A DNA stretch of 64,000 nt from an uncultured delta proteobacterium (GTDB lineage Bacteria > Myxococcota_A > UBA9160 > SMWR01), in assembly GCA_963832165.1 (NCBI GenBank), contig CAWHTE010000005.1, positions 192,001 to 256,000 of the forward strand, in the 5' to 3' direction. Numbering within the stretch: the first letter of the stretch is position 1; every line of letters starts with the position of its first letter. The notes below the pieces were generated by a model. It was not told where the DNA came from, ran no database searches, and saw only the letters and a list, made by a program, of their open reading frames with translations. Below are positions 2,061 to 11,606 of the stretch, one piece after another. The position numbers were made by a program, and so were the translations under genes.

Positions 2061-2088
2061 TGGCGTCCCCAACGGGAGTCGAACCCGT
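2061..2088 (-). repeat. att site: duplicated 3' end of tRNA-Glu
   Basis: tggcgtccccaacgggagtcgaacccgt identical to 11531-11558. Confidence 0.95.
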
Positions 2089-2113
2089 TGGGTTTCTCCG
2101 CAACCGCTTGCAA

Positions 2114-2359
2114 TCACGACTCTTTCCTCCGCGCGAGGTTGTGACGGGTTTGTGACGGTCGCCGCGCTAGGTGGCGCACCAGCAGCGCTCGTAGAAAATC
2201 GCTCGGCGACTCGTCGCCCGTGGCGTCTTCCAACGCCCGCGCCTCATTGGCGGTCAGGTTCACCGTCACCCGTATCTTGCGCCGCTCGCCGGGAGGGAGA
2301 GGCTTCCGACCCGATCCGGGCCTCGGTCCTCCCCACTCGCCTTTGGTTTTGCGACGCAT
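2114..2359 (-). CDS. Small DNA-binding protein (GGxRxGxGRK segment plus ribbon-helix-helix-like region)
   Basis: WGGPRPGSGRKP followed by IRVTVNLTANEARALE...SDFLRALL. Confidence 0.6.
   Translation of the reverse strand: MRRKTKGEWGGPRPGSGRKPLPPGERRKIRVTVNLTANEARALEDATGDESPSDFLRALLVRHLARRPSQTRHNLARRKES
2139..2158. promoter_or_regulatory. Putative integrase arm-type binding sites (left end)
   Basis: ttgtgacgg twice with 11-bp period; same motif and period at 11474-11493. Confidence 0.7.
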
Positions 2360-2806
2360 CAAACCATCTTACGGGCTCACTGCTCTCGCCGCCACAGGCG
2401 CGGCTCGAACCACCGGGGCCACTGATTCGCCCACCACCCGTCGTGCGGCGAGCGCGTGTTCGGCGAGATCGTTCCGGGCGGTCGAGAGCGCGGCCGCTCC
2501 GTTCATGCGTCCAGCGTCGTCTCCCCGCTCTCGTCCCCGTCCTCGCCCGCAACGCCGGTTTCGCAGGTCGGGTAGCCGCGCAGCCGCTGTGCCTCCATCG
2601 CGATCCGTTTCGCCATGCCGTCACCACCGAGAGACTCGATGACAGCCCGAGAACAAGAACAACCACGTGCGCGCGTGCGGCAACGAAACACGGATCCTTG
2701 TTCTCGGGGTCTCCGGGTGCCGGAGGCAGCACCGGCATCCCATAGAGGACGCGGAACATCATCTCGTCGCCATCGATCCCAGACTCGCGGCGGTACTCGT
2801 CGGCGC

Positions 2807-3157
2807 TCACGATGTACTCGGCCACTGAGATCGCGCTCGGGTCCCTCCGTGCAGATCGACGTTCCACCAGAATGGCTGCGCGAAGCCCATCATCAGTGAA
2901 GTGAGCCACTCGGCCGCGGCATCGGGGATCAGGAACCGGCCCTTGCCGCGCCGCTGCGAATCCTCCGCCAGCTGACGGGCGCGCCACTGTGCAACCTCGT
3001 GCAGCCGAAAGAGGTAGTCGCTCCTTCCGTTTCTCCGCCGCTCGTGCGGACAGCCGCGGCGAACCCAGTTGTCAACCGTTACCAGGCTCACGCCGTACTC
3101 ACGCGCCAGGTCGGAGCGGTTGTAGGTCAACTCGCTCTCGTCTTCCGTCCCGCTCAT
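2807..3157 (-). CDS. Terminase small subunit-like (lambda Nu1-type winged HTH) protein; may extend to ~2503 through frameshifts
   Basis: YNRSDLAREYGVSLVTVDNWVRRGCP...YLFRLHEVAQW resembles the Nu1 N-terminal DNA-binding domain. Confidence 0.65.
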   Translation of the reverse strand: MSGTEDESELTYNRSDLAREYGVSLVTVDNWVRRGCPHERRRNGRSDYLFRLHEVAQWRARQLAEDSQRRGKGRFLIPDAAAEWLTSLMMGFAQPFWWNVDLHGGTRARSQWPSTS

Positions 3158-3194
3158 ATAAACAACCCCCTAGCGGCTGCAGTGCCTAGGCCGA

Positions 3195-3241
3195 TCGGGC
3201 GCGGTGCCCGACTCCGCAAGCAAGGACTCCAGGAAGGACCC
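3195..3241 (-). other. Candidate cos packaging site (cosQ-like GGGTCCT plus cosN-like dyad)
   Basis: Minus strand GGGTCCTTCC (3241-3232), then dyad TCGGGC-ACCGC-GCCCGA (3211-3195), just upstream of the Nu1-like gene. Confidence 0.55.
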
Positions 3242-3393
3242 GCGAAGTCTATGTGCTACGGAAAGCGTAGCACCTGGAGCGCTTCGCTCGGGGTCGCCGG
3301 TCCTTTTGGAATCCGGCCTCCGCGGGGCTGGAACTTTCCCACAGGCCGCTAAGGCGGAGGCCGGTCAGCTGCAGCGCCTTCCATAGTAGGCGA

Positions 3394-3399
3394 TGTCAA
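3394..3399 (-). promoter_or_regulatory. Outward-facing -35 (TTGACA) of the IS circle-junction promoter
   Basis: On circularisation TTGACA-17 bp-GATCAT is formed (GATCAT at 4913-4908). Confidence 0.7.
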
Positions 3400-3715
3400 G
3401 AGCATGGTACTCCGTTATTCGACCTAGCGGCGTCGAACGTCCAGGCATCATTCGATCGATCGGCACCGTACGGGTCCATCCGCCATCCTCCTCCGCGTTC
3501 TCCTCGGGCCGTGAAGCGTGCGGGCTTGCGAACCATGCTTCCATCGGGGCCTCGAAGGCCATCGCTTCATTCGGTCCTGCGAGGGGGCATATCCTTGTTA
3601 TTGGGCCTGCAACCGCAGTCGCGGCCACGCGTTGGCACGGATGCTTCCCCTCGACCCTGTGCCCCGGAGATCCAGATCTCGCTGTAGCAGACGATGCTCC
3701 GTCGATGCAGAGCGA
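3400..3715 (-). ncRNA. Putative bridge/seekRNA of the IS110 element (exact ends unknown)
   Basis: Two stem-enclosed internal loops with target-matching (CCAACGC, TAACAAGG) and donor-matching (ATGGAAG) segments. Confidence 0.65.
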
Positions 3716-4771
3716 TCAGTGGGTGACGAGATTGTGGATCTTCCCGGGGTCGTACTCCTCCTGTGTCTTCCACATGGCCAGCACGATCGCGGCGATCTGC
3801 CGCGCCACCGTGAGCTTGGCCAGGTTCGGCTTCGTGCCGTTCTCGAGCTGCCGGTCGTAGCCCTCGCGCAGCGGATTCGGTCCGCAGTGCGCGACGACGG
3901 TCGTGGCCGCGCCCTTGAAGATCGCTTTGAGCATCCGGTTGTGGTTGAAGTTCAAACCGCGCGTCTGCACGACCCGAGCCTTCACCCATCGGCCCTGGTC
4001 CTGCACCCAGTCGCTCGACGACCGCATCACGACCCCAAAGCCACAGTAGGCCCAAAACTGCCGCTTGGTGCGGAAGCGGTACGGGGTCACCACGATCGGC
4101 AGCATCTGCGCGACCCGGATCGGACCGAGCCCGGGCGCAGTCTCGAGGATCCGCGCGATCCGATGCCGATGCGACTCGCGCAGCATCGCCGCTTCCGCTT
4201 CGGCCTTGAGCGCTTCGAGCTGATCGAGCTCGCGTCCCAGGAGCTCGACGGCTTCCCGTGTCGCCGGCGGCAGCGCCTGCGCACGCTTCGCCCGTTCCTC
4301 GAGCTTGTACAGCGCGTCGCCCGCACACGGCAGGCCGCGAGACCGAAAGAAGCTCTTCAGTCGACTCTTCACCCGCGCCACGTCCCGGGTCACCATCGTG
4401 TACGTCCGAGCCCGATCGCGCAACGCCGTGAAGAGCTTCGCGTCCTTGTACACCGGCCGCTTGATCCCCCCGGTGCGCAGCTTCTCCGCGAGCCCATGCG
4501 CGTCGATCGCGTCGCTCTTCTGGCCCGGCTTCCACTCACCGCGGTACACGACGAGCTCGTCCACATGGGGCGAGAGGATCTCGTAGAGCCACTGGCTCCA
4601 CTCGCCTTCCTCGATGCACAAGTGCAGATTCCCCGCGAACGATTGGAGGTAGCCCACGAGCGCCTTCCCATTCGTCTCCACCACGTCGCGCCGGATCTGC
4701 TTCCCCGACGCATCCAACCCGCAGAACGTGACACTCGCGGCGTGCACGTCGGCTCCGAGATAGCGTTCCAT
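3716..4771 (-). CDS. IS110-family transposase/recombinase
   Basis: YLGADVH, CIEEG, KSDAIDA (DEDD RuvC-like domain); PGLGPI, YCG..V.RSS C-terminal domain; AGGAGG RBS before ATG 4771. Confidence 0.95.
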   Translation of the reverse strand: MERYLGADVHAASVTFCGLDASGKQIRRDVVETNGKALVGYLQSFAGNLHLCIEEGEWSQWLYEILSPHVDELVVYRGEWKPGQKSDAIDAHGLAEKLRTGGIKRPVYKDAKLFTALRDRARTYTMVTRDVARVKSRLKSFFRSRGLPCAGDALYKLEERAKRAQALPPATREAVELLGRELDQLEALKAEAEAAMLRESHRHRIARILETAPGLGPIRVAQMLPIVVTPYRFRTKRQFWAYCGFGVVMRSSSDWVQDQGRWVKARVVQTRGLNFNHNRMLKAIFKGAATTVVAHCGPNPLREGYDRQLENGTKPNLAKLTVARQIAAIVLAMWKTQEEYDPGKIHNLVTH

Positions 4772-4918
4772 TGCGGTCCTCCTTCGTTGGGCGTCCATGC
4801 CCAGGTCGTGTTTCAACCCGAAGCATGTCCCCAGCGGAGGAGACCGCCACCGCGCCTCGATGCTGCCTTCCCATGCAGCGCGCCTCGATCGAGGACGTGA
4901 CCTACTTATGATCCCTTG

Positions 4919-5455
4919 TTAGGCCGCGGCCAGCTCGCCAGCTCGGCCATGGGTAAGCAGCTCGCGGAAGCTCTCAGGAACGTGTGCAACCAGTTGCGAG
5001 CGAAGATGCCAGAGGCCGTTTCGCCCAACCTGGACATCCGCGGCCGCAAGGAAGAGAGTTTGTATGTGAACTGGCGGATCGCCAGAGACCGTGCAGATCG
5101 AAACGATTGTGGCGGTTGAGATAGAACGCGGAGTTGTGATAGGGGGGACATACTCGCGCGAGGCGACCATCGTTCTTGAGCGAGCCTGTCCGTCGCCGAT
5201 TTCGAATGCGACTTGGATGTCGCGACCGCCCGAGTCGTAGTGCCCGAGAAACAGCCGGACGGGATGCCCCCCGGGAGCACCACGCTCGGACTTGCACCAG
5301 GAAACCTTGCCAGCTCGGATGACGAAGGACACCGCAACGATCGGTTCGGATGCGGCCGCTGTACCGCGCCAGTCGCGAACCGCCGCTGGAAGCCAAGCGC
5401 CTGTGAGGGCGACGTCGAGCCGTCGACAGGCATCGGATTGGAACGCATCCAGCAT
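4919..5455 (-). CDS. Integron cassette 3, hypothetical protein
   Basis: 178 aa ORF fills the space between two attC sites; its stop TAA lies within the GCCTAAC inverse core. Confidence 0.7.
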   Translation of the reverse strand: MLDAFQSDACRRLDVALTGAWLPAAVRDWRGTAAASEPIVAVSFVIRAGKVSWCKSERGAPGGHPVRLFLGHYDSGGRDIQVAFEIGDGQARSRTMVASREYVPPITTPRSISTATIVSICTVSGDPPVHIQTLFLAAADVQVGRNGLWHLRSQLVAHVPESFRELLTHGRAGELAAA

Positions 5456-5470
5456 GATTCTCTTGCCGCG

Positions 5471-5595
5471 GCCTAACGGATCGGCGTTGAGCTGCCGGCC
5501 GCTGACCGATTCGCGACGGCTCTCAACGCTCGCCGCCAGAATGCTACCACCGTTCGGAAGGGCGCAGGACGGTCAGCTCCAACGCCTTGTTGGGC
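5471..5595 (-). other. attC site (125 bp)
   Basis: GCCCAAC...GTTAGGC; imperfect palindrome with AAGGCGTTGGAGCTGAC / GCAGCTCAACGCC arms. Confidence 0.9.
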
Positions 5596-5622
5596 AGCGC
5601 CTAGCGCATCTAGACAAGGACG

Positions 5623-6003
5623 CTACCGAAGCAGTGCATCAAGGTCGTCCCGCCAGGGATGCCGGTCCGGAGCTGCCCACTCCCCACTTGGCGGTGGAAA
5701 GTTCGAACGAGCGTAGGCGCACCTTGTAGAGAAGTCGACCACCGCGTAGAGGCGGTCGTTGATGAAAAGGCCGGCCTTCTGGCCGTCTGGAGACCAGACG
5801 ACGCGCACGATCGCCTCGTGGTGATTATCGGCAAACTGGGACGCCTTGTAGATCTGGACCGCGTCTAGGATTGAACCGCGTTCGCGATCGTGTGCGTAGA
5901 AGTAGCCCGATTCGCCGTCGTCTTCGAACACAACACTCACGGGCGAACTCGGTGAGTCGCTCGCGAACCACGCTTCTTTGCCTGGTGTGAGGTGCTCAAG
6001 CAT
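5623..6003 (-). CDS. Integron cassette 2, DUF2251-like protein
   Basis: VVFEDDGESGYFYA...ILDAVQIY...VWSPDGQKAGLFIN...AVVDF pattern. Confidence 0.75.
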   Translation of the reverse strand: MLEHLTPGKEAWFASDSPSSPVSVVFEDDGESGYFYAHDRERGSILDAVQIYKASQFADNHHEAIVRVVWSPDGQKAGLFINDRLYAVVDFSTRCAYARSNFPPPSGEWAAPDRHPWRDDLDALLR

Positions 6004-6011
6004 TCGGCGCT

Positions 6012-6171
6012 GCCCAACGGATCGGCGCTCAGCTGCGAGCGCGCTGACCGCGATGTTACAACACGGCGCCACGCCGCCAGACCGCAAGAGCCGCTGGCGA
6101 GGCGAAGCGAGCCCAAGCGGCGATGCCACGAGAATCCACTGGCGCTCGGCAGCTGCAGCGCCTTGTTGGGC
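6012..6171 (-). other. attC site (160 bp)
   Basis: GCCCAACAAGGCGCTGCAGCTGCC...GCAGCTGAGCGCCGATCCGTTGGGC. Confidence 0.9.
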
Positions 6172-6192
6172 GGCGTGCTGCCATTCAACAGC

Positions 6193-6822
6193 TCATCTCG
6201 CGAGCGATTGAACTCGCTGCAGCATCTCAACTCGATCTTTCGTGGTCGGGGGGACAAGCTTGCTGTCCGCTACGAATGCGGGTGCCCCGTGTCCAATAAC
6301 GAACCTCGTCCCGAATCTTACCCGCGGGTTGTACTCCAGTACTTCGACTTTGGTTCGGGTGGGACCATCATCCCGTAGATGGATGATGAAGTCGCAGTGA
6401 AATGGCAGAGGCTTTCCAGATGCCGTGTATTCGGAATACCACTCCATAGCACCATTAAGGAAGATATCGTGCTTTCTCGCCTCGGCCGAAAGGCGACGGT
6501 ATCGGTCCATCGCAGGGTCATCCTTACTGTTACGACTTGGAGGCGGCCAAGTATTCTCGTCTGTCGGAACGAAATTACCAAGTGAAAATGACCTGTATTC
6601 GAGGTGCGGGGTTACTAGCGACCTGCCGGGAAGGCGAACAGTAGCTCTGTCCACCAACTTCTCGCCTAGCGCACCATCGCGGATCTTCGCCGAGACGTCG
6701 GCAAGACTTAGCGGGACGACGCCCTCAACGAAATCTCTGGTTTCAGCGGCTTGCCGCTCAACCTCCCCCCCGCAGGAGAAAAGGAGCGGCAGAAGAGCGA
6801 TCAGTAGTTCCTTGCGCTCCAT
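6193..6822 (-). CDS. Integron cassette 1, putative lipoprotein
   Basis: MERKELLIALLPLLFSC signal peptide/lipobox; visibly lower GC than the flanking chromosome. Confidence 0.7.
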   Translation of the reverse strand: MERKELLIALLPLLFSCGGEVERQAAETRDFVEGVVPLSLADVSAKIRDGALGEKLVDRATVRLPGRSLVTPHLEYRSFSLGNFVPTDENTWPPPSRNSKDDPAMDRYRRLSAEARKHDIFLNGAMEWYSEYTASGKPLPFHCDFIIHLRDDGPTRTKVEVLEYNPRVRFGTRFVIGHGAPAFVADSKLVPPTTKDRVEMLQRVQSLAR

Positions 6823-6918
6823 ACGCAGCTTTCGCATCTGCGGCAAGCAGGCCGAGAACACTACGGAGGCAATCAATCCGAACCCTCGAGCGCAATTTGG
6901 TGGTGTTCCATTCACGCC

Positions 6919-6960
6919 GCCCAACTACTAATGGATTGCGCTCCCCCAACAGCAAACGCT
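6919..6960 (-). other. Candidate attI site (crossover G6925/T6924)
   Basis: GTTGGGCGGCGTG is complementary to the end of cassette 1, but is preceded by AATCCATTAGTA rather than an attC arm. Confidence 0.6.
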
Positions 6961-7403
6961 GCGAGAGCTTGCAGCCTATTGTACCGGCGGTTGTGGGGAG
7001 CGGTCGCAGAATCGCGGGGTTTGGGCGGGAGTCGAGTCCAATTAGGCTGCGAGATTTCGCAGGATAAGAGGGAGACGGGCGCGGGGGGCGGTCGCAGCTC
7101 TCGGTTCTCGCAGCCTATGTCGATGTTCGTTGCGGGCATCCGGCGTCGAAGCTCGCGACGGAGCACGTGAATCGCGTGACTGGAGCGGCGGCAAAGGCTG
7201 CGAGGCGATGGACGCATCCACGTGATCCGCAGCGGTGGACGAATCGTCCGGCGTGGGCAGCCGCGAGCGAAGCGGGGCGGCGAGACGCAGGATCGCAGGC
7301 GACCACTCGATCAGTGCAGGTCGCCCGGTTGCGTCGATCGCGAGCACGAACGGCGCGCAGCCACTTTCGAGGCGGAGCGGCCCCAGGATGCGGCCTCGAA
7401 TCC

Positions 7404-7500
7404 GGTGCGGCTGGTGCAGCCGGTGCTGCCTTCCACATCCTTTTCCCTGCGCGCGTGGGGGGGAGTTAGCGAGAGCTGCACCACCTGCACCGCGTGCACC
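7404..7500. repeat. Putative replication origin: inverted iteron triplets
   Basis: GGTGC x3 (7404, 7413, 7422) and TGCACC x3 (7477, 7486, 7495), both with 9-bp period, immediately downstream of the primase-helicase. Confidence 0.65.
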
Positions 7501-7513
7501 TTGGCCCTGGTAG

Positions 7514-9032
7514 TCATCGGGTCCTCACCCCCTTGAATCCTCGAACACCGCCGTGCTGCGCCGTCTCTTCGAGGTCGGGGTTCTGGCGCAGCCGCTCGTA
7601 CACGGCCTCGGCGCGCAGTGGGAAGCGGTGCCCGTTGTCCGCGCACCATATTCGATAGCTCGCGTACAGCGCCGTTCGCGGCGTCACGGCCTGCGCGTGC
7701 TCAGCGAGCAGCGATCGTCGAGCCACCCGGCCACTGAGTCGAGTTGCCGCCGATAGTCGCCACCTGCATCGCGCACGGCCTTCGGTAGCTCGAAGCGCCC
7801 GCGTTCGATGAGTCGGCGCAGGGCATCGACGGCCGCCACGAGCAACCCCTCAAGCTCAGCCTGCGTCGTCAACTTCGCGACGAGGTAGGGGTCACGCTTC
7901 TCGGGGGCGATCACGCTCTGCATCGGGACCACGATCCAGCGCTCGAACGACGCTTCGCTCTGGTCCCTGGAGTACGGCGCTTCGTTCGCCGAGAAGATCG
8001 GCAGCGCGAAGCTCGTGAACGAAAACGGCTGGCCGTACTTCCGCTCGGCGTAGATCGCGTCGCCGCCGGTCATCATCTTAAACACGTCGGTGCGCTCGAT
8101 TGCCCTGGCGTCGAGGTCGCCGCAGACGTTTGCCAACTTTCCATAGAGCGCGGCGGCGGCAAAGCGAGACTCGGAGAATAGTTGCAGCGGTACCGAGGCG
8201 ACGTTCGCCGCTCCGAGCAGCGCGCGGATGATCGAGAGCAACACCAACTTGCCGTTTCGACCCGGCCCGAGGAGCAGCACCGCGGTGTGCAGCGAAAGAT
8301 CCGCGAGCAGCGCGTATCCGATGATCTCCAGCACGAGCTGCACGGTCGGCTCGTCGGGCAGCACATCTCCGAGGAAGGCTTCGATCCGCATACAGCAGGA
8401 GTGCACGTGCCACTCGATCGGGATCTGGATCGCGCTGCGGTGCTCAGGTGTGTGCGGGCGCAATTCACCGGTGCGCCAGTCGAGCAGCCCGTTGCGGACG
8501 TTGAGAAATTGCTCAGGTGGACGGTGCGGGATCGTTGGCGCTTCAGACGCAGCCACGAGATCACTTCGTCGGAATGCCGCCGCTTGAACTTCTGGCCCAA
8601 CCGGTCGCGCACCCAGGCGCGCGCGTGCTGCTCGCCGTCGGCGACGTAGACGCCATCGCTGTAGCGATACAGCCGATCGTCGTCGCCGAGGGCGAGATGA
8701 TGTTCGCGTTTGAGCAGGACGCCTGCGCGCGATGGGGTGAATCCGCTCTCGCCGAAGAACTCACCACCCGCGGTACTGCCATTGGCAGTAGATCGTGCCC
8801 CGGCGGTTCGCGAGCACAGCTCACCGAGCCCGAGCGCGTCGAGATGTTCCGAATCCGATCTCCCACAACCGCAGAGCAGAACAACGCCACCATCGCGACC
8901 CGCGCGGGCGGCCATCCAAGGCGGTGCGCCGTCTTCGAGTGGACACCGAGCGCGTCCGCTCGGGTCGAGCCCGCCGAGCCCAGCATCTTCGAGCGCGACG
9001 TGGACGCGGTCGATCGCGGCCGCCGCCGTCAT
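7514..9032 (-). pseudogene. P4/D5-family primase-helicase (SF3), split by at least 2 frameshifts
   Basis: Three overlapping ORFs: Cys-rich N-terminus; NVRNGLLDWRTGELRPHTP, GPGRNGK, LYGKLAN, AERKY; C-terminal wHTH LYASYRIWCADNG. Frameshifts could be assembly errors. Confidence 0.85.
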
Positions 9033-9217
9033 TCGCCCGGCTCCGCCGTCGCCTCGGACGCGACGAGCCGCACCGGCCTCTCAAGACGCGCCAGACGCCG
9101 CCGTTCGAGCGCGGCCAGCTCCGACGCAAGGCGCTGGACCACTTTGGGGTCGTCCGAGCGGCCGAGGATGCGGACGCCACCGCCCAGGACGGACTCGATC
9201 AGTAGAGCCTCGCGCAT
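9029..9217 (-). CDS. Small hypothetical protein
   Basis: AGGAGG RBS; ATGA overlap with the primase start. Confidence 0.55.
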   Translation of the reverse strand: MREALLIESVLGGGVRILGRSDDPKVVQRLASELAALERRRLARLERPVRLVASEATAEPGE

Positions 9218-9265
9218 GGGTTCCGACCTCCTGCCCGTCTACTCCGAGCCAGGAGGTGTTTGCGC

Positions 9266-10162
9266 TTACACGGCCCTACGAAATTTCGCGCGGATCCGAC
9301 CGAGGTGGACGCGAACGGTGGATGACGCGAGCCCGACGTGCTCGGCAGCAGCCTCGCTCTCGCCACCGTTCTCGTACATCGCGGCGACGATCTCGCGTTC
9401 GCGAGGGCTGAGCGCGGTGGCTGAACGGGCGCACTGGATTTGCAATTCCACCTCGCGATCCGACGCGGGGAGGTCCTCGACGTTTAGATCGGTGTGGGGA
9501 CGGTCCATCATCTCGCGAACGTCCCGCCGAACGATTGAAAACACGGCGTCAGCGAGCGCCTTCCGAAAACGCGGATTCTCGCGGCGGCAGAGATGGAATG
9601 GAAGCGAACCGACCTTCGCGGCCGCCTCGGGGGTCGCCGCCAGTACCAGCTCCCGCCGCAGCTCCTCCCGCTGGCGTCCCTCACGGATCGCAATTCGCCA
9701 GAGTGCGCGCTTCACCTCCGCGCGCGCATCGGGGTGTCCGTGGAACCCACCGAAAGCATTTGCAATCCATGCATCTGCAATCCATTCCGCCGCCAGATCG
9801 CGCGCATCGTCTGCGTAGGGCCATCCGCCGCGGTGCCGCATCGCACGAGCGGACCACGCCAGGTCTGGCTCCGCCGGAGTCTTCGCCTCCTCAACGTAGC
9901 CCTCCGCCATCCTGACGGTCTGTGCGGCCGCCTCGAAGTCCAAGGATGCGAGTACCGCGCGTAGCGCCTCTTGGGCCACATCCAGCATCGGCTGGAGCGT
10001 GCGCATAATCGCGCGGTACTGGCGATCGTGTTCGGCCACTAGTTCGCGCACGTGTTGCACGAGCCACGGCGGCGGCAGAACGTCACACGCTCGCTCTCCG
10101 ACGGGAGCGTCGGGCGCTGCAAGGATCTCGGCGGCCGTCAGTAGTCGAATCGCCTCACTCAC
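9266..10162 (-). CDS. Regulator with C-terminal LuxR/sigma70 region-4 HTH
   Basis: LSPREREIV...AAEHVGLASSTVRVHLGRIRAK. Confidence 0.7.
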   Translation of the reverse strand: MSEAIRLLTAAEILAAPDAPVGERACDVLPPPWLVQHVRELVAEHDRQYRAIMRTLQPMLDVAQEALRAVLASLDFEAAAQTVRMAEGYVEEAKTPAEPDLAWSARAMRHRGGWPYADDARDLAAEWIADAWIANAFGGFHGHPDARAEVKRALWRIAIREGRQREELRRELVLAATPEAAAKVGSLPFHLCRRENPRFRKALADAVFSIVRRDVREMMDRPHTDLNVEDLPASDREVELQIQCARSATALSPREREIVAAMYENGGESEAAAEHVGLASSTVRVHLGRIRAKFRRAV

Positions 10163-10173
10163 CCGTGGAAATC

Positions 10174-11325
10174 CTACTGCGCTCGCGAACGTCGCGCGAT
10201 TTCGAGCATCCCTTGGTCGAGTCGATTCGCGTAGCGCCGCGTGCTGCGAGAGTCGGCGTGCCCGAGGTAGTCGCGAACGGCGCGCTCGTTCTTGGTCCGC
10301 TCCATCGCTTCGGTTGCGAACGTGTGCTTAGTGCCCTCGTACAGCTTCACCGGCTTCGGCAGCCCGGCCTCGGTGCACGCGGCCGTCCACCGCTCGCGGA
10401 GCTGCCAGTGGGACCAGCGCCGACCCGATCGGGGGTTCGGGAGCAGCACCGCACCAGGATCGGCCGCGAGGCGCTTCTCGGCGGGCCAGCGTGCCTCGAT
10501 CCATGCGGCCACCAGCTCGGGCACCGGCACATCGCGATTGCGGCGCGTCTTCGTCGGGCCGACGCGCGCGCTCGGACCGGGACCCTGCACTGCCTTCGTG
10601 ATCGAGAGCCGCGGCGGATCGCCGGGGCGGTAGTCGGCGACGGTGAGCGCGCGAACCTCGCCGGGACGCAGCCCCATGAACGCCATCGCCAGGTGCGCGC
10701 CGCGGTCGGCTTCGGGGATCGCATCGAGGATCGCCTGTTGCGTCGCAGGCGAGAGAATCGTCGGCGTGTAGTTGGCCTGGGCGACGTGCGGGAACGCGGG
10801 AACCTCGCGCAACGTGCGCTGGCGCTGGCACCAGCGCAGGAACGCGCGAAATGCGCCGAGCACGTGTCGGCGCGTCTTGGGCGTAGAGCGCGCGTTCCTT
10901 CGCCATCCACAGCGACCACGATTCGAGCGCGCCCTCGGTGACTTCCGTCAATCCGCGCGCGCCCGACCACGCCACCTCCCCGCCCTTCCGGCCGTAGCGT
11001 CGATACTCGCGCACGGTGAGCGGGCTCCGATCGCCGATCTGAACGAGCCCGTCCATGTGTTCGAGCCAGCCCGTGTAGCGGTTGGCGATGCGGTGAATGT
11101 CGGCGACGACGGGCAGGAACTCCGAGACCGCTTCCTCCCGCGGCGTCCCCTGCGCGATCTTCACGCGGATCACGTTGAGCACAGCCTCGGCCATCGCTCG
11201 GTTGTCGCGCGAACGACACACCGGCGAGCCCGTGGATCCACCCGAAGGGCCTCGCGTCGATGCGCCAGCGCTGACCGTCCGACGTGCGCCGGACCTCACG
11301 ACAGCTTCCGGTCCCCGCGCGCCAT
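10174..11325 (-). pseudogene. Tyrosine integrase, about 3 frameshifts (real or assembly errors)
   Basis: GLRPGEVRAL, TKT, LYEGTKHTFAT, LGHAD..STRRY; N-terminal parts lie in other frames; adjacent to the tRNA att site. Confidence 0.85.
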
Positions 11326-11473
11326 CACGAGCACCGCGAGCATGTGCTCGGATTCGGTGCGAAGGCGGAAAGCGTCCATGCCTTCCGACTCCGCGCCGCG
11401 AGCGGATTTCGTTTACAGCGAACGCAACCGGTGCCGATCCCGTTGGGGCTCAACCCGGAGGAAGGGCTCCGAC

Positions 11474-11493
11474 TTGTGACGCAGTTGTGATGG
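11474..11493. promoter_or_regulatory. Putative integrase arm-type binding sites (right end)
   Basis: ttgtgacg / ttgtgatgg with 11-bp period, matching 2139-2158. Confidence 0.65.
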
Positions 11494-11530
11494 CCGTAGG
11501 TGGGTGTAACTAACTGAAATGCGTGCTATT

Positions 11531-11606
11531 TGGCGTCCCCAACGGGAGTCGAACCCGTGTCGCCGCCTTGAAAGGGCGGTGTCCTAGGCCTCTAGACGAT
11601 GGGGAC
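11531..11606 (-). tRNA. tRNA-Glu (TTC)
   Basis: GTCCCCATCGTCTAGAGGCCTAGGACACCGCCCTTTCAAGGCGGCGACACGGGTTCGACTCCCGTTGGGGACGCCA; cloverleaf and CCA end. Confidence 0.97.

Follow-up and report, generated by a model that had tools for sequence, protein, structure and literature searches.

The locus described here raises the question whether a family of phage satellites carries an integron platform, that is an attI site with gene cassettes, as its accessory module, or whether a single satellite came to hold a platform of its host. The window, by which we mean the whole stretch of 64,000 nucleotides analysed (G000:C5:192001-256000; genomes, contigs and loci are cited by G, C and L numbers), comes from a source genome of 5.5 Mb in 11 contigs with ~70% guanine plus cytosine that is 89% complete, and contig C5, which carries the island in question, is 375 kb long. 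This island of 9,498 bp lies at a tRNA-Glu gene between perfect 28-bp direct repeats, and an attI-headed cassette array sits in it between a putative replication origin and a candidate cos site. We find it rather probable that a satellite resembling the cos-type phage-inducible chromosomal islands (PICIs) captured here a solo attI platform of its host lineage, one without an adjacent integron integrase gene (intI), and that it is now decaying.

The array lies on the minus strand and is made up, from its head onwards, of the following features, in which ORF stands for open reading frame and IS for insertion sequence:

6915..7069, minus strand: attI head with core GTTGGGC (6919-6925), a TACAAT hexamer and two inverted TAGGCTGC-N8-GCAG palindromes (~6957-6980 and ~7040-7067), from an alignment of 16 heads
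6193..6840, minus strand: cassette 1 ORF, ~215 amino acids, N-terminus lipoprotein-like by eye; no NCBIfam or PADLOC match
6012..6171, minus strand: attC1, intact, 160 bp, bottom-strand hairpin of -45.2 kcal/mol
5623..6003, minus strand: cassette 2 ORF, DUF2251 (PF10008, E 2e-27)
5471..5595, minus strand: attC2, intact, 125 bp, with R''/L''/L'/R' boxes and a bottom-strand hairpin of -28.4 kcal/mol
4919..5455, minus strand: cassette 3 ORF, 178 amino acids, its stop codon in the R'' box of attC3; no Pfam, NCBIfam or PADLOC match
3381..4915, minus strand: IS110-family (IS1111-attC-type) IS with its transposase at 3716-4771 (PF01548 and PF02371; NF033542 at E 2e-32, under the cut-off of that model)
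3313..3380, minus strand: right remnant of attC3, an L'' box and stem that stops before L' and R'

The 155-bp head carries a GTTRRRY-type core at the start of the array and is related to sites that stand next to intI elsewhere. A profile built from solo heads only finds sites directly 3' of co-oriented intI in G005 (E 4e-15), G006 (9e-10) and G031 (4e-9), and by coordinates homologues of the head also lie directly 3' of intI in G018, G028 (twice) and G023. Judged by homology to these intI-adjacent sites, the attI-like site of the original prediction is a true attI, at which recombination is predicted. No sigma-70 consensus promoter was found in the head. Its palindrome motif is almost confined to heads, and a reading of the palindromes as LexA boxes was rejected by eye, the motif not being upstream of two lexA-like genes or recA. 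The array had also been described as lacking intI, and this was confirmed: neither the island nor the rest of the assembly holds one (TIGR02249, best 72.6 bits vs a cut-off of 265), and tblastn with two congener IntIs detected no remnant at 7070-7400. Three of 6 congeners and 20 of 36 genomes of the family possess the gene. The proposed reliance on IntI in trans is supported, and the host gene that was to be sought in this genome did not appear over the cut-off.

The window attI is not peculiar to the island. Five heads without intI occur in G000 (the window, C7:814299, C11:96029, C4:697222 and C4:693112; L005, L007 and L008), one of six rows in the count having been dropped as a reverse self-match, and the other four lie just 3' of ordinary, unrelated host genes or inside an array; further arrays of this genome are found on C1 and C2. 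Among 43 other genomes of the family 11 have heads, 28 altogether, of which 7 stand beside intI and 21 are solo, and G005, G006, G031 and G018 keep 6, 5, 5 and 4 heads, respectively, beside a single intI. The architecture is a distributed one, with four to six heads per genome and one intI or none. Related heads were also met on six metagenome contigs, none with intI on the contig and two of them with two heads each, while six of the 12 metagenome pattern matches (L153-L157, L160) were dropped as apparent chance matches in coding DNA; in the viral collection the head pattern occurred in 0 contigs. That attI-bearing segments move as units is suggested by the presence of two heads in one array, on C4 and on metagenome contigs L149 and L150, and by single cassettes that end at a head instead of an attC (L149, L150 and L008:4113-4196).

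In G006 the start of one and the same divergent gene, putatively DUF222/HNH-like, lies ahead of each of three solo heads (L166:3480-4122, L040:6320-6659, L230:3540-3890). A dispersed repeat of ~250 bp with a terminal 20-bp palindrome occurs in G000 at L005:7995-8235, L007:5700-5930, L008:8340-8570 and no fewer than five other places, the palindrome alone being found 11 times. This repeat precedes three other attI heads and closes the C2 array; it was set aside as a part of the head, being a separate dispersed repeat without a copy in the window. The C2 array begins with a different attI-like type, and its first cassette is partly tandem-duplicated (L006:10045-10375, 10895-11250).

The array of the island resembles most the sites of its own genome. 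The window head shares 81% identity with the head on C11 and 77% with that on C7, and no more than 70% with any of 9 foreign heads (baseline from shuffling 52%); for attC1 the figures are 83% with an attC on C2 and at most 72% among 28 foreign attCs. Since head and attC1 are both closest to own-genome sites, the capture appears to have taken place in this host lineage, and the search for related attC sites elsewhere in the genome, recommended beforehand, was answered by sites such as that on C2. The IS points the same way: its 1,535 bp lie between R'' and L'' of attC3, and a copy identical at 99.6% occupies the same attC position in another array of this genome, on C7. Both whole sites, attC1 and attC2, have complete R and L boxes, perfect L boxes and an 8-bp L'-R' spacer. 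Over its first ~35 nt the attC3 remnant agrees with attCs on C2 and C7 that are likewise interrupted by an IS and run on to full L' and R' boxes. As attC3 is split by the IS and truncated before L' and R', cassette 3 is, from its boundaries, predicted to be fixed in place. The three attC-bounded cassettes of the original prediction were found with attC1 and attC2 whole and the third site split and cut short, and the nested IS layer was recovered as the IS110-family element inside attC3.

The cassette proteins are of little-known kinds. That of cassette 1 has 14 homologues at 40-68% identity, none named beyond 'hypothetical', that of cassette 3 has a 28% homologue at C11:624k, and a defence role received no PADLOC match among three window and three G005 cassette proteins. 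Two further IS110-family elements sit in attC sites of G000 (L006:8005-9400, L007:6690-7820, L009:6400-7515), one of them as two identical copies at the R' end in reverse orientation.

The original prediction had foreseen a satellite family with attI plus cassettes as its accessory module, to be recognised by comparison of homologous islands. Relatives were sought in 192 other genomes of the order, with a primase threshold of E 1e-25, and none of three primase-related and none of five loci related to the terminase small subunit (TerS) carried attI or attC. The proposed module was not found in the family, and the comparison of islands returned backbone relatives without these sites. The element of G017 is complete from att to att and has neither attI nor attC; in G018 the slot is empty, 353 bp separating the primase from an intact TerS homologue, and G115 has primase and then TerS in the same order. 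As G018 and G115 keep primase then TerS, the array is, as judged from this conserved gene order, an insertion into it. When viral and genome collections were searched with the integrase, the primase and TerS, only distant loci were reached, and no attI was present in those scanned.

Homologues of the integrase occur in 41 of 193 genomes of the order and point toward their tRNA, and none of the loci shares the window primase or TerS; for want of these matches they were rejected as sister islands. Among 53 integrase-related loci scanned for attC, one, in G056, has an array. This complete integron with 7 attC (C9, L062:16973 to L063:12266) neighbours the related integrase, which lies at tRNA-Met, and what by eye look like genes for MobC and a relaxase are present there, with no second att in 60 kb. 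In G001 C7 (L037:171-3354) another complete integron lies directly past the last of tandem tRNA-Arg att fragments.

The island that received the array comprises the following further features, read from the tRNA:

11531..11606, minus strand: tRNA-Glu(TTC), the integration site, whose 3' 28 bp are the proximal att repeat (ARAGORN, Rfam RF00005)
10174..11375, minus strand: tyrosine integrase (PF00589, E 2e-12), 48% identical across three frames to the intact integrase of G056
9266..10162, minus strand: 298-amino-acid protein with a C-terminal sigma-70 region 4/LuxR-type helix-turn-helix (HTH), a candidate regulator (PF08281, E 1e-6; PF00196, E 7e-6)
9029..9217, minus strand: ORF of 62 amino acids without a meaningful family match
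7514..9032, minus strand: D5/P4-type primase-helicase (TIGR01613, E 8e-56, over the cut-off), 59% identical to the intact G017 primase
7405..7500, no strand assigned: putative replication origin with two inverted GGTGCA/TGCACC iteron sets, by word density and the same layout in the G017 element
3195..3241, minus strand: cos candidate, a cosQ-like GGGTCCT (3235-3241), by conservation, and a downstream dyad (3195-3211), by sequence reading
2503..3157, minus strand: Nu1/Rpp-like TerS gene of ~210 codons with frameshifts near 2850 and 2645, three ORF pieces matching one intact G018 gene
2114..2362, minus strand: small gene for a probable ribbon-helix-helix regulator with a GGxRxGxGRK start; homologues at 44-46% in other integrated elements
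2061..2088, minus strand: distal att repeat, a duplicated tRNA-Glu 3' end of 28 bp, 100% identical to 11531-11558

The minus-strand order from the tRNA is hence integrase, HTH protein, 62-residue ORF, primase-helicase, origin, array, cos candidate, Nu1-like gene and the small probable ribbon-helix-helix gene. Most of this backbone had been named correctly in advance: the att repeats are the 3' end of tRNA-Glu(TTC), integrase and primase-helicase are matched by their families, and the iterons are real in that four exact GGTGCA/TGCACC words fall within 105 bp (7401-7505), and of the 52,713 bins of that length in the genome one has at least four. The G017 element likewise has two inverted iteron sets 3' of its primase. 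The motif GGGTCCT, labelled cosQ-like after lambda, occurs in three of four aligned loci (the window, G018 and G135, and not G115), where it precedes the TerS homologue by ~80 bp.

The Nu1-like gene held up in part. Its best relative is a 209-amino-acid gene of G018 that spans the three window ORF pieces, so the window has one gene of ~210 codons broken by two frameshifts, and no protein of comparable length in the database is homologous to the window piece. The protein matches phrog_57 terminase small subunit (E 9e-9) and also phrog_66 excisionase (E 4e-7), and among solved structures lambda gpNu1 (1j9i, E 0.0016) and RppC (6hlk, E 0.1). Its terminase likeness is confined to the N-terminal winged HTH (wHTH), which matches excisionases too; in the atlas its neighbours are Terminase_5/Phage_Nu1 at 0.88-0.89, a lead only. 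The small protein at 2114..2362 had no family match beyond phrog_7471 (E 0.05), and a similar small gene of the G017 element gives a weak RHH_1 match (E 0.012).

Signs of decay are seen in the same genes. Compared with the G056 integrase, the integrase reading frame is clearly shifted near 10895 and probably also near 11180, and the primase has two frameshifts (near 8550 and near 7700) together with a GKS>GKL change in Walker A. Clear frameshifts number five in 3.4 kb of island backbone vs eight in 48.7 kb of host genes (Poisson P 3e-4; host rate from 123 of 468 proteins of closer relatives, with 40 host genes alignable). With five to six backbone frameshifts and the Walker A change, a substitution that an indel error would not produce, the island is probably defective. 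The spread by a helper phage that had been envisaged is not favoured by a backbone that looks defective and an assembly without a lambda-type large terminase; no GpA-type large terminase was detected in the G000 assembly, and in the family such a gene occurs in 3 of 43 genomes.

Beyond the distal att repeat lies a host gene for an HTTM-domain membrane protein (window:577-1989; PF05090, E 6e-8), and the Rfam scan gave tRNA and no other RNA family. The equivalent tRNA-Glu(TTC) of G005 (C18, L296) holds an unrelated integrative element. Two more satellite-like islands occur in G000, on C3 at tRNA-Lys (L168:3100-13126) and at the end of C4 (L241:12500-18889, continuing past the contig end), each with a large-terminase-like gene, the two being 52-54% identical.

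Several observations count against capture of a host-lineage platform as we propose it. The backbone relatives are few and distant (primase 49-59%, TerS 37-53%), and a closer sub-family that bears arrays could exist; attC2 is nearer to attCs of G001 (72%) than to any of its own genome (67%); no junction sequence identifies the way in which the head arrived; and, since host genes are frameshifted too (6 of the 40 alignable), part of the apparent decay may be assembly error. A further point is that the pairing of attI with an integrated element is not unique to the window. Two contigs of the congener G005 end with an att fragment of a tRNA 3' end (45 bp of tRNA-Gly in C56, L038:8992-10648; 43 bp of tRNA-Arg in C61, L225:13226-15298), a small gene, an attI head and cassettes; the ends are 87% identical over 715 bp, their cassettes differ, and both contigs stop inside the array. 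The same attI with different cassettes, which the original prediction had named as the supporting pattern, is therefore seen on tRNA-integrated elements, on a different backbone. From these ends and the window island together one may argue that satellite-like elements of the genus recurrently carry attI as a cargo dock filled by host IntI in trans and thereby spread solo heads. G005 does encode intI elsewhere in its genome, and the integrase fragment at its tRNA-Arg is 73% identical to the integrase of the G017 element, the source of the closest relative of the window primase. However, the terminal gene of the G005 ends is another one, resembling viral DUF5681 proteins (atlas 0.94, 171 shared features) and phrog_18735 terminase small subunit only at E 0.045, with start and body in different frames in both copies, and it stands beside att, not between origin and cos. 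The G005 elements are split over contigs, no P4-type primase was found in them, and the pair may go back to a single capture event. In G112 the same terminal gene lies beside a tRNA att fragment without attI, 19 of the 21 solo heads in relatives have no satellite gene or tRNA att fragment in their fetched flanks, many of which are short, and the viral contigs lack the head pattern. We regard recurrent carriage as possible but unlikely, and are as doubtful of the wider picture in which one co-oriented intI serves four to six solo docks per genome, satellites repeatedly adopt a dock, and helper phages move cassettes and docks between cells.

Alternatively, the satellite may once have contained a complete integron, of which the present array is the leftover after deletion of intI. 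In relatives intI immediately precedes this head and shares its orientation, so that deletion of the gene would yield the window structure, complete integrons stand beside the related integrase of G056 and the att fragment of G001, and loss of intI is the standard CALIN model (cluster of attC sites lacking integron-integrase; PMC11389934). Against this, the interval 7070-7400 is free of intI remnants, and five heads in G000, like the four to six beside a single intI in four relatives, are hard to obtain by repeated deletion; we judge such an origin improbable. A misassembly that joined the array to the island at the repeated IS could be suspected from the nearly identical copy on C7, the indel errors of the assembly and the truncation of attC3 next to the IS. 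Yet attI and the three cassettes join origin and primase without crossing the IS, its other flank joins cos and TerS, its flanks in the window differ from those on C7, the order primase then TerS recurs in G018 and G115, and the contig is long, which leaves this account with very little probability.

Under capture of a host-lineage platform, the history of the island may be pictured as follows. When intact, it would have been excised by its own integrase and replicated from the iteron origin, and the Nu1/Rpp-like protein acting with cos would have led to packaging by a cos-type helper phage. The head would have come by the process that scatters heads 3' of ordinary genes, in which IntI most likely excises segments bearing attI and inserts them elsewhere, and cassettes would have been loaded at attI in trans by a co-oriented IntI, of the type that relatives with several solo heads keep at one locus. 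Afterwards the IS may have entered attC3, a deletion of the right half of attC3 may have fixed cassette 3, and frameshifts may have gathered in the backbone. Given a supply of IntI, cassettes 1 and 2 would still be excisable and new cassettes could be added.

The carrier invites comparison with the Gram-negative cos-type PICIs, EcCICFT073 and relatives, the features and Rpp packaging redirection of which are treated in PMC6092414 and PMC6739421. Like these it has tRNA att repeats, an integrase, a primase-helicase that precedes an origin with two inverted iteron sets, a cos-like site, a wHTH protein related to gpNu1 and weakly to RppC, and co-oriented genes within 9.5 kb. Among its ORFs Pfam and PHROGs revealed no tail, holin, lysis or other phage structural gene and no capsid morphogenesis gene, the latter being a PICI core component yet absent from many bona fide PICIs. 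The five PICI components and the usual accessory positions are given in the SatelliteFinder preprint (10.1101/2022.09.14.508007). In contrast to PICIs, no AlpA/MerR/Stl regulator was recognised in the island, the gene after the integrase having the sigma-70 region 4/LuxR HTH and the 62-residue ORF matching nothing; its core genes are frameshifted; and its extra DNA, an attI-cassette array, lies between origin and cos and not after terS or beside the integrase. By its gene content the island can be called cos-type PICI-like, with PICI membership incomplete: integrase, primase and TerS are there, the HTH protein is a candidate for the regulator, and the capsid gene is absent.

The array itself resembles CALINs as defined in PMC4889954, where attI was not searchable, in having at least two attC on one strand, no neighbouring intI and a presumed IntI in trans, and CALINs are treated as mobilised in trans in PMC11389934. 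Seventeen phage CALINs are given in PMC9892861, which does not use the word satellite; a satellite-like carrier could be among them. The same paper reports a CALIN with its own attI from the Shewanella prophage M16-3. The window array too has its own attI and lies inside a phage-related element, whereas its carrier is a satellite-like island and not a prophage, element and assembly lack intI, and the attI is one of several dispersed copies. An attI downstream of intI has been described for archaeal integrons (PMC9668308). The window head is homologous to attI directly 3' of intI at seven loci of relatives, as in integrons with co-oriented intI, and differs in being solo, relatives keeping one intI and several solo heads. 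With the IS1111-attC group (ISKpn4, ISPst6; PMC11187229) the window IS shares an IS110-family transposase, one attC end, a fixed position after R'' in two arrays and, by eye, sub-terminal inverted repeats, a likeness drawn from insertion position and IS110 family. A literature search that covered few subscription papers met no satellite family with attI-cassette cargo, and 10.1101/2024.07.02.601686 mentions satellites in passing only.

If capture of a host-lineage platform is the true explanation, the locus is a clear natural case in which four mobile layers are nested, and it shows that a satellite can receive a solo attI dock, which would add a phage-satellite route for cassette arrays beside the prophage and plasmid routes. 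If satellites instead took up docks recurrently, they would possess a cargo slot replenished by the host integron. More general is the existence of a bacterial family with several attI-headed arrays per genome and one intI or none. Tools that detect only attC and intI would score such arrays as CALINs and miss the retained dock. The family supplies cognate pairs of intI and solo attI within one genome, by which the trans-loading of CALINs, mostly assumed so far, becomes directly testable.

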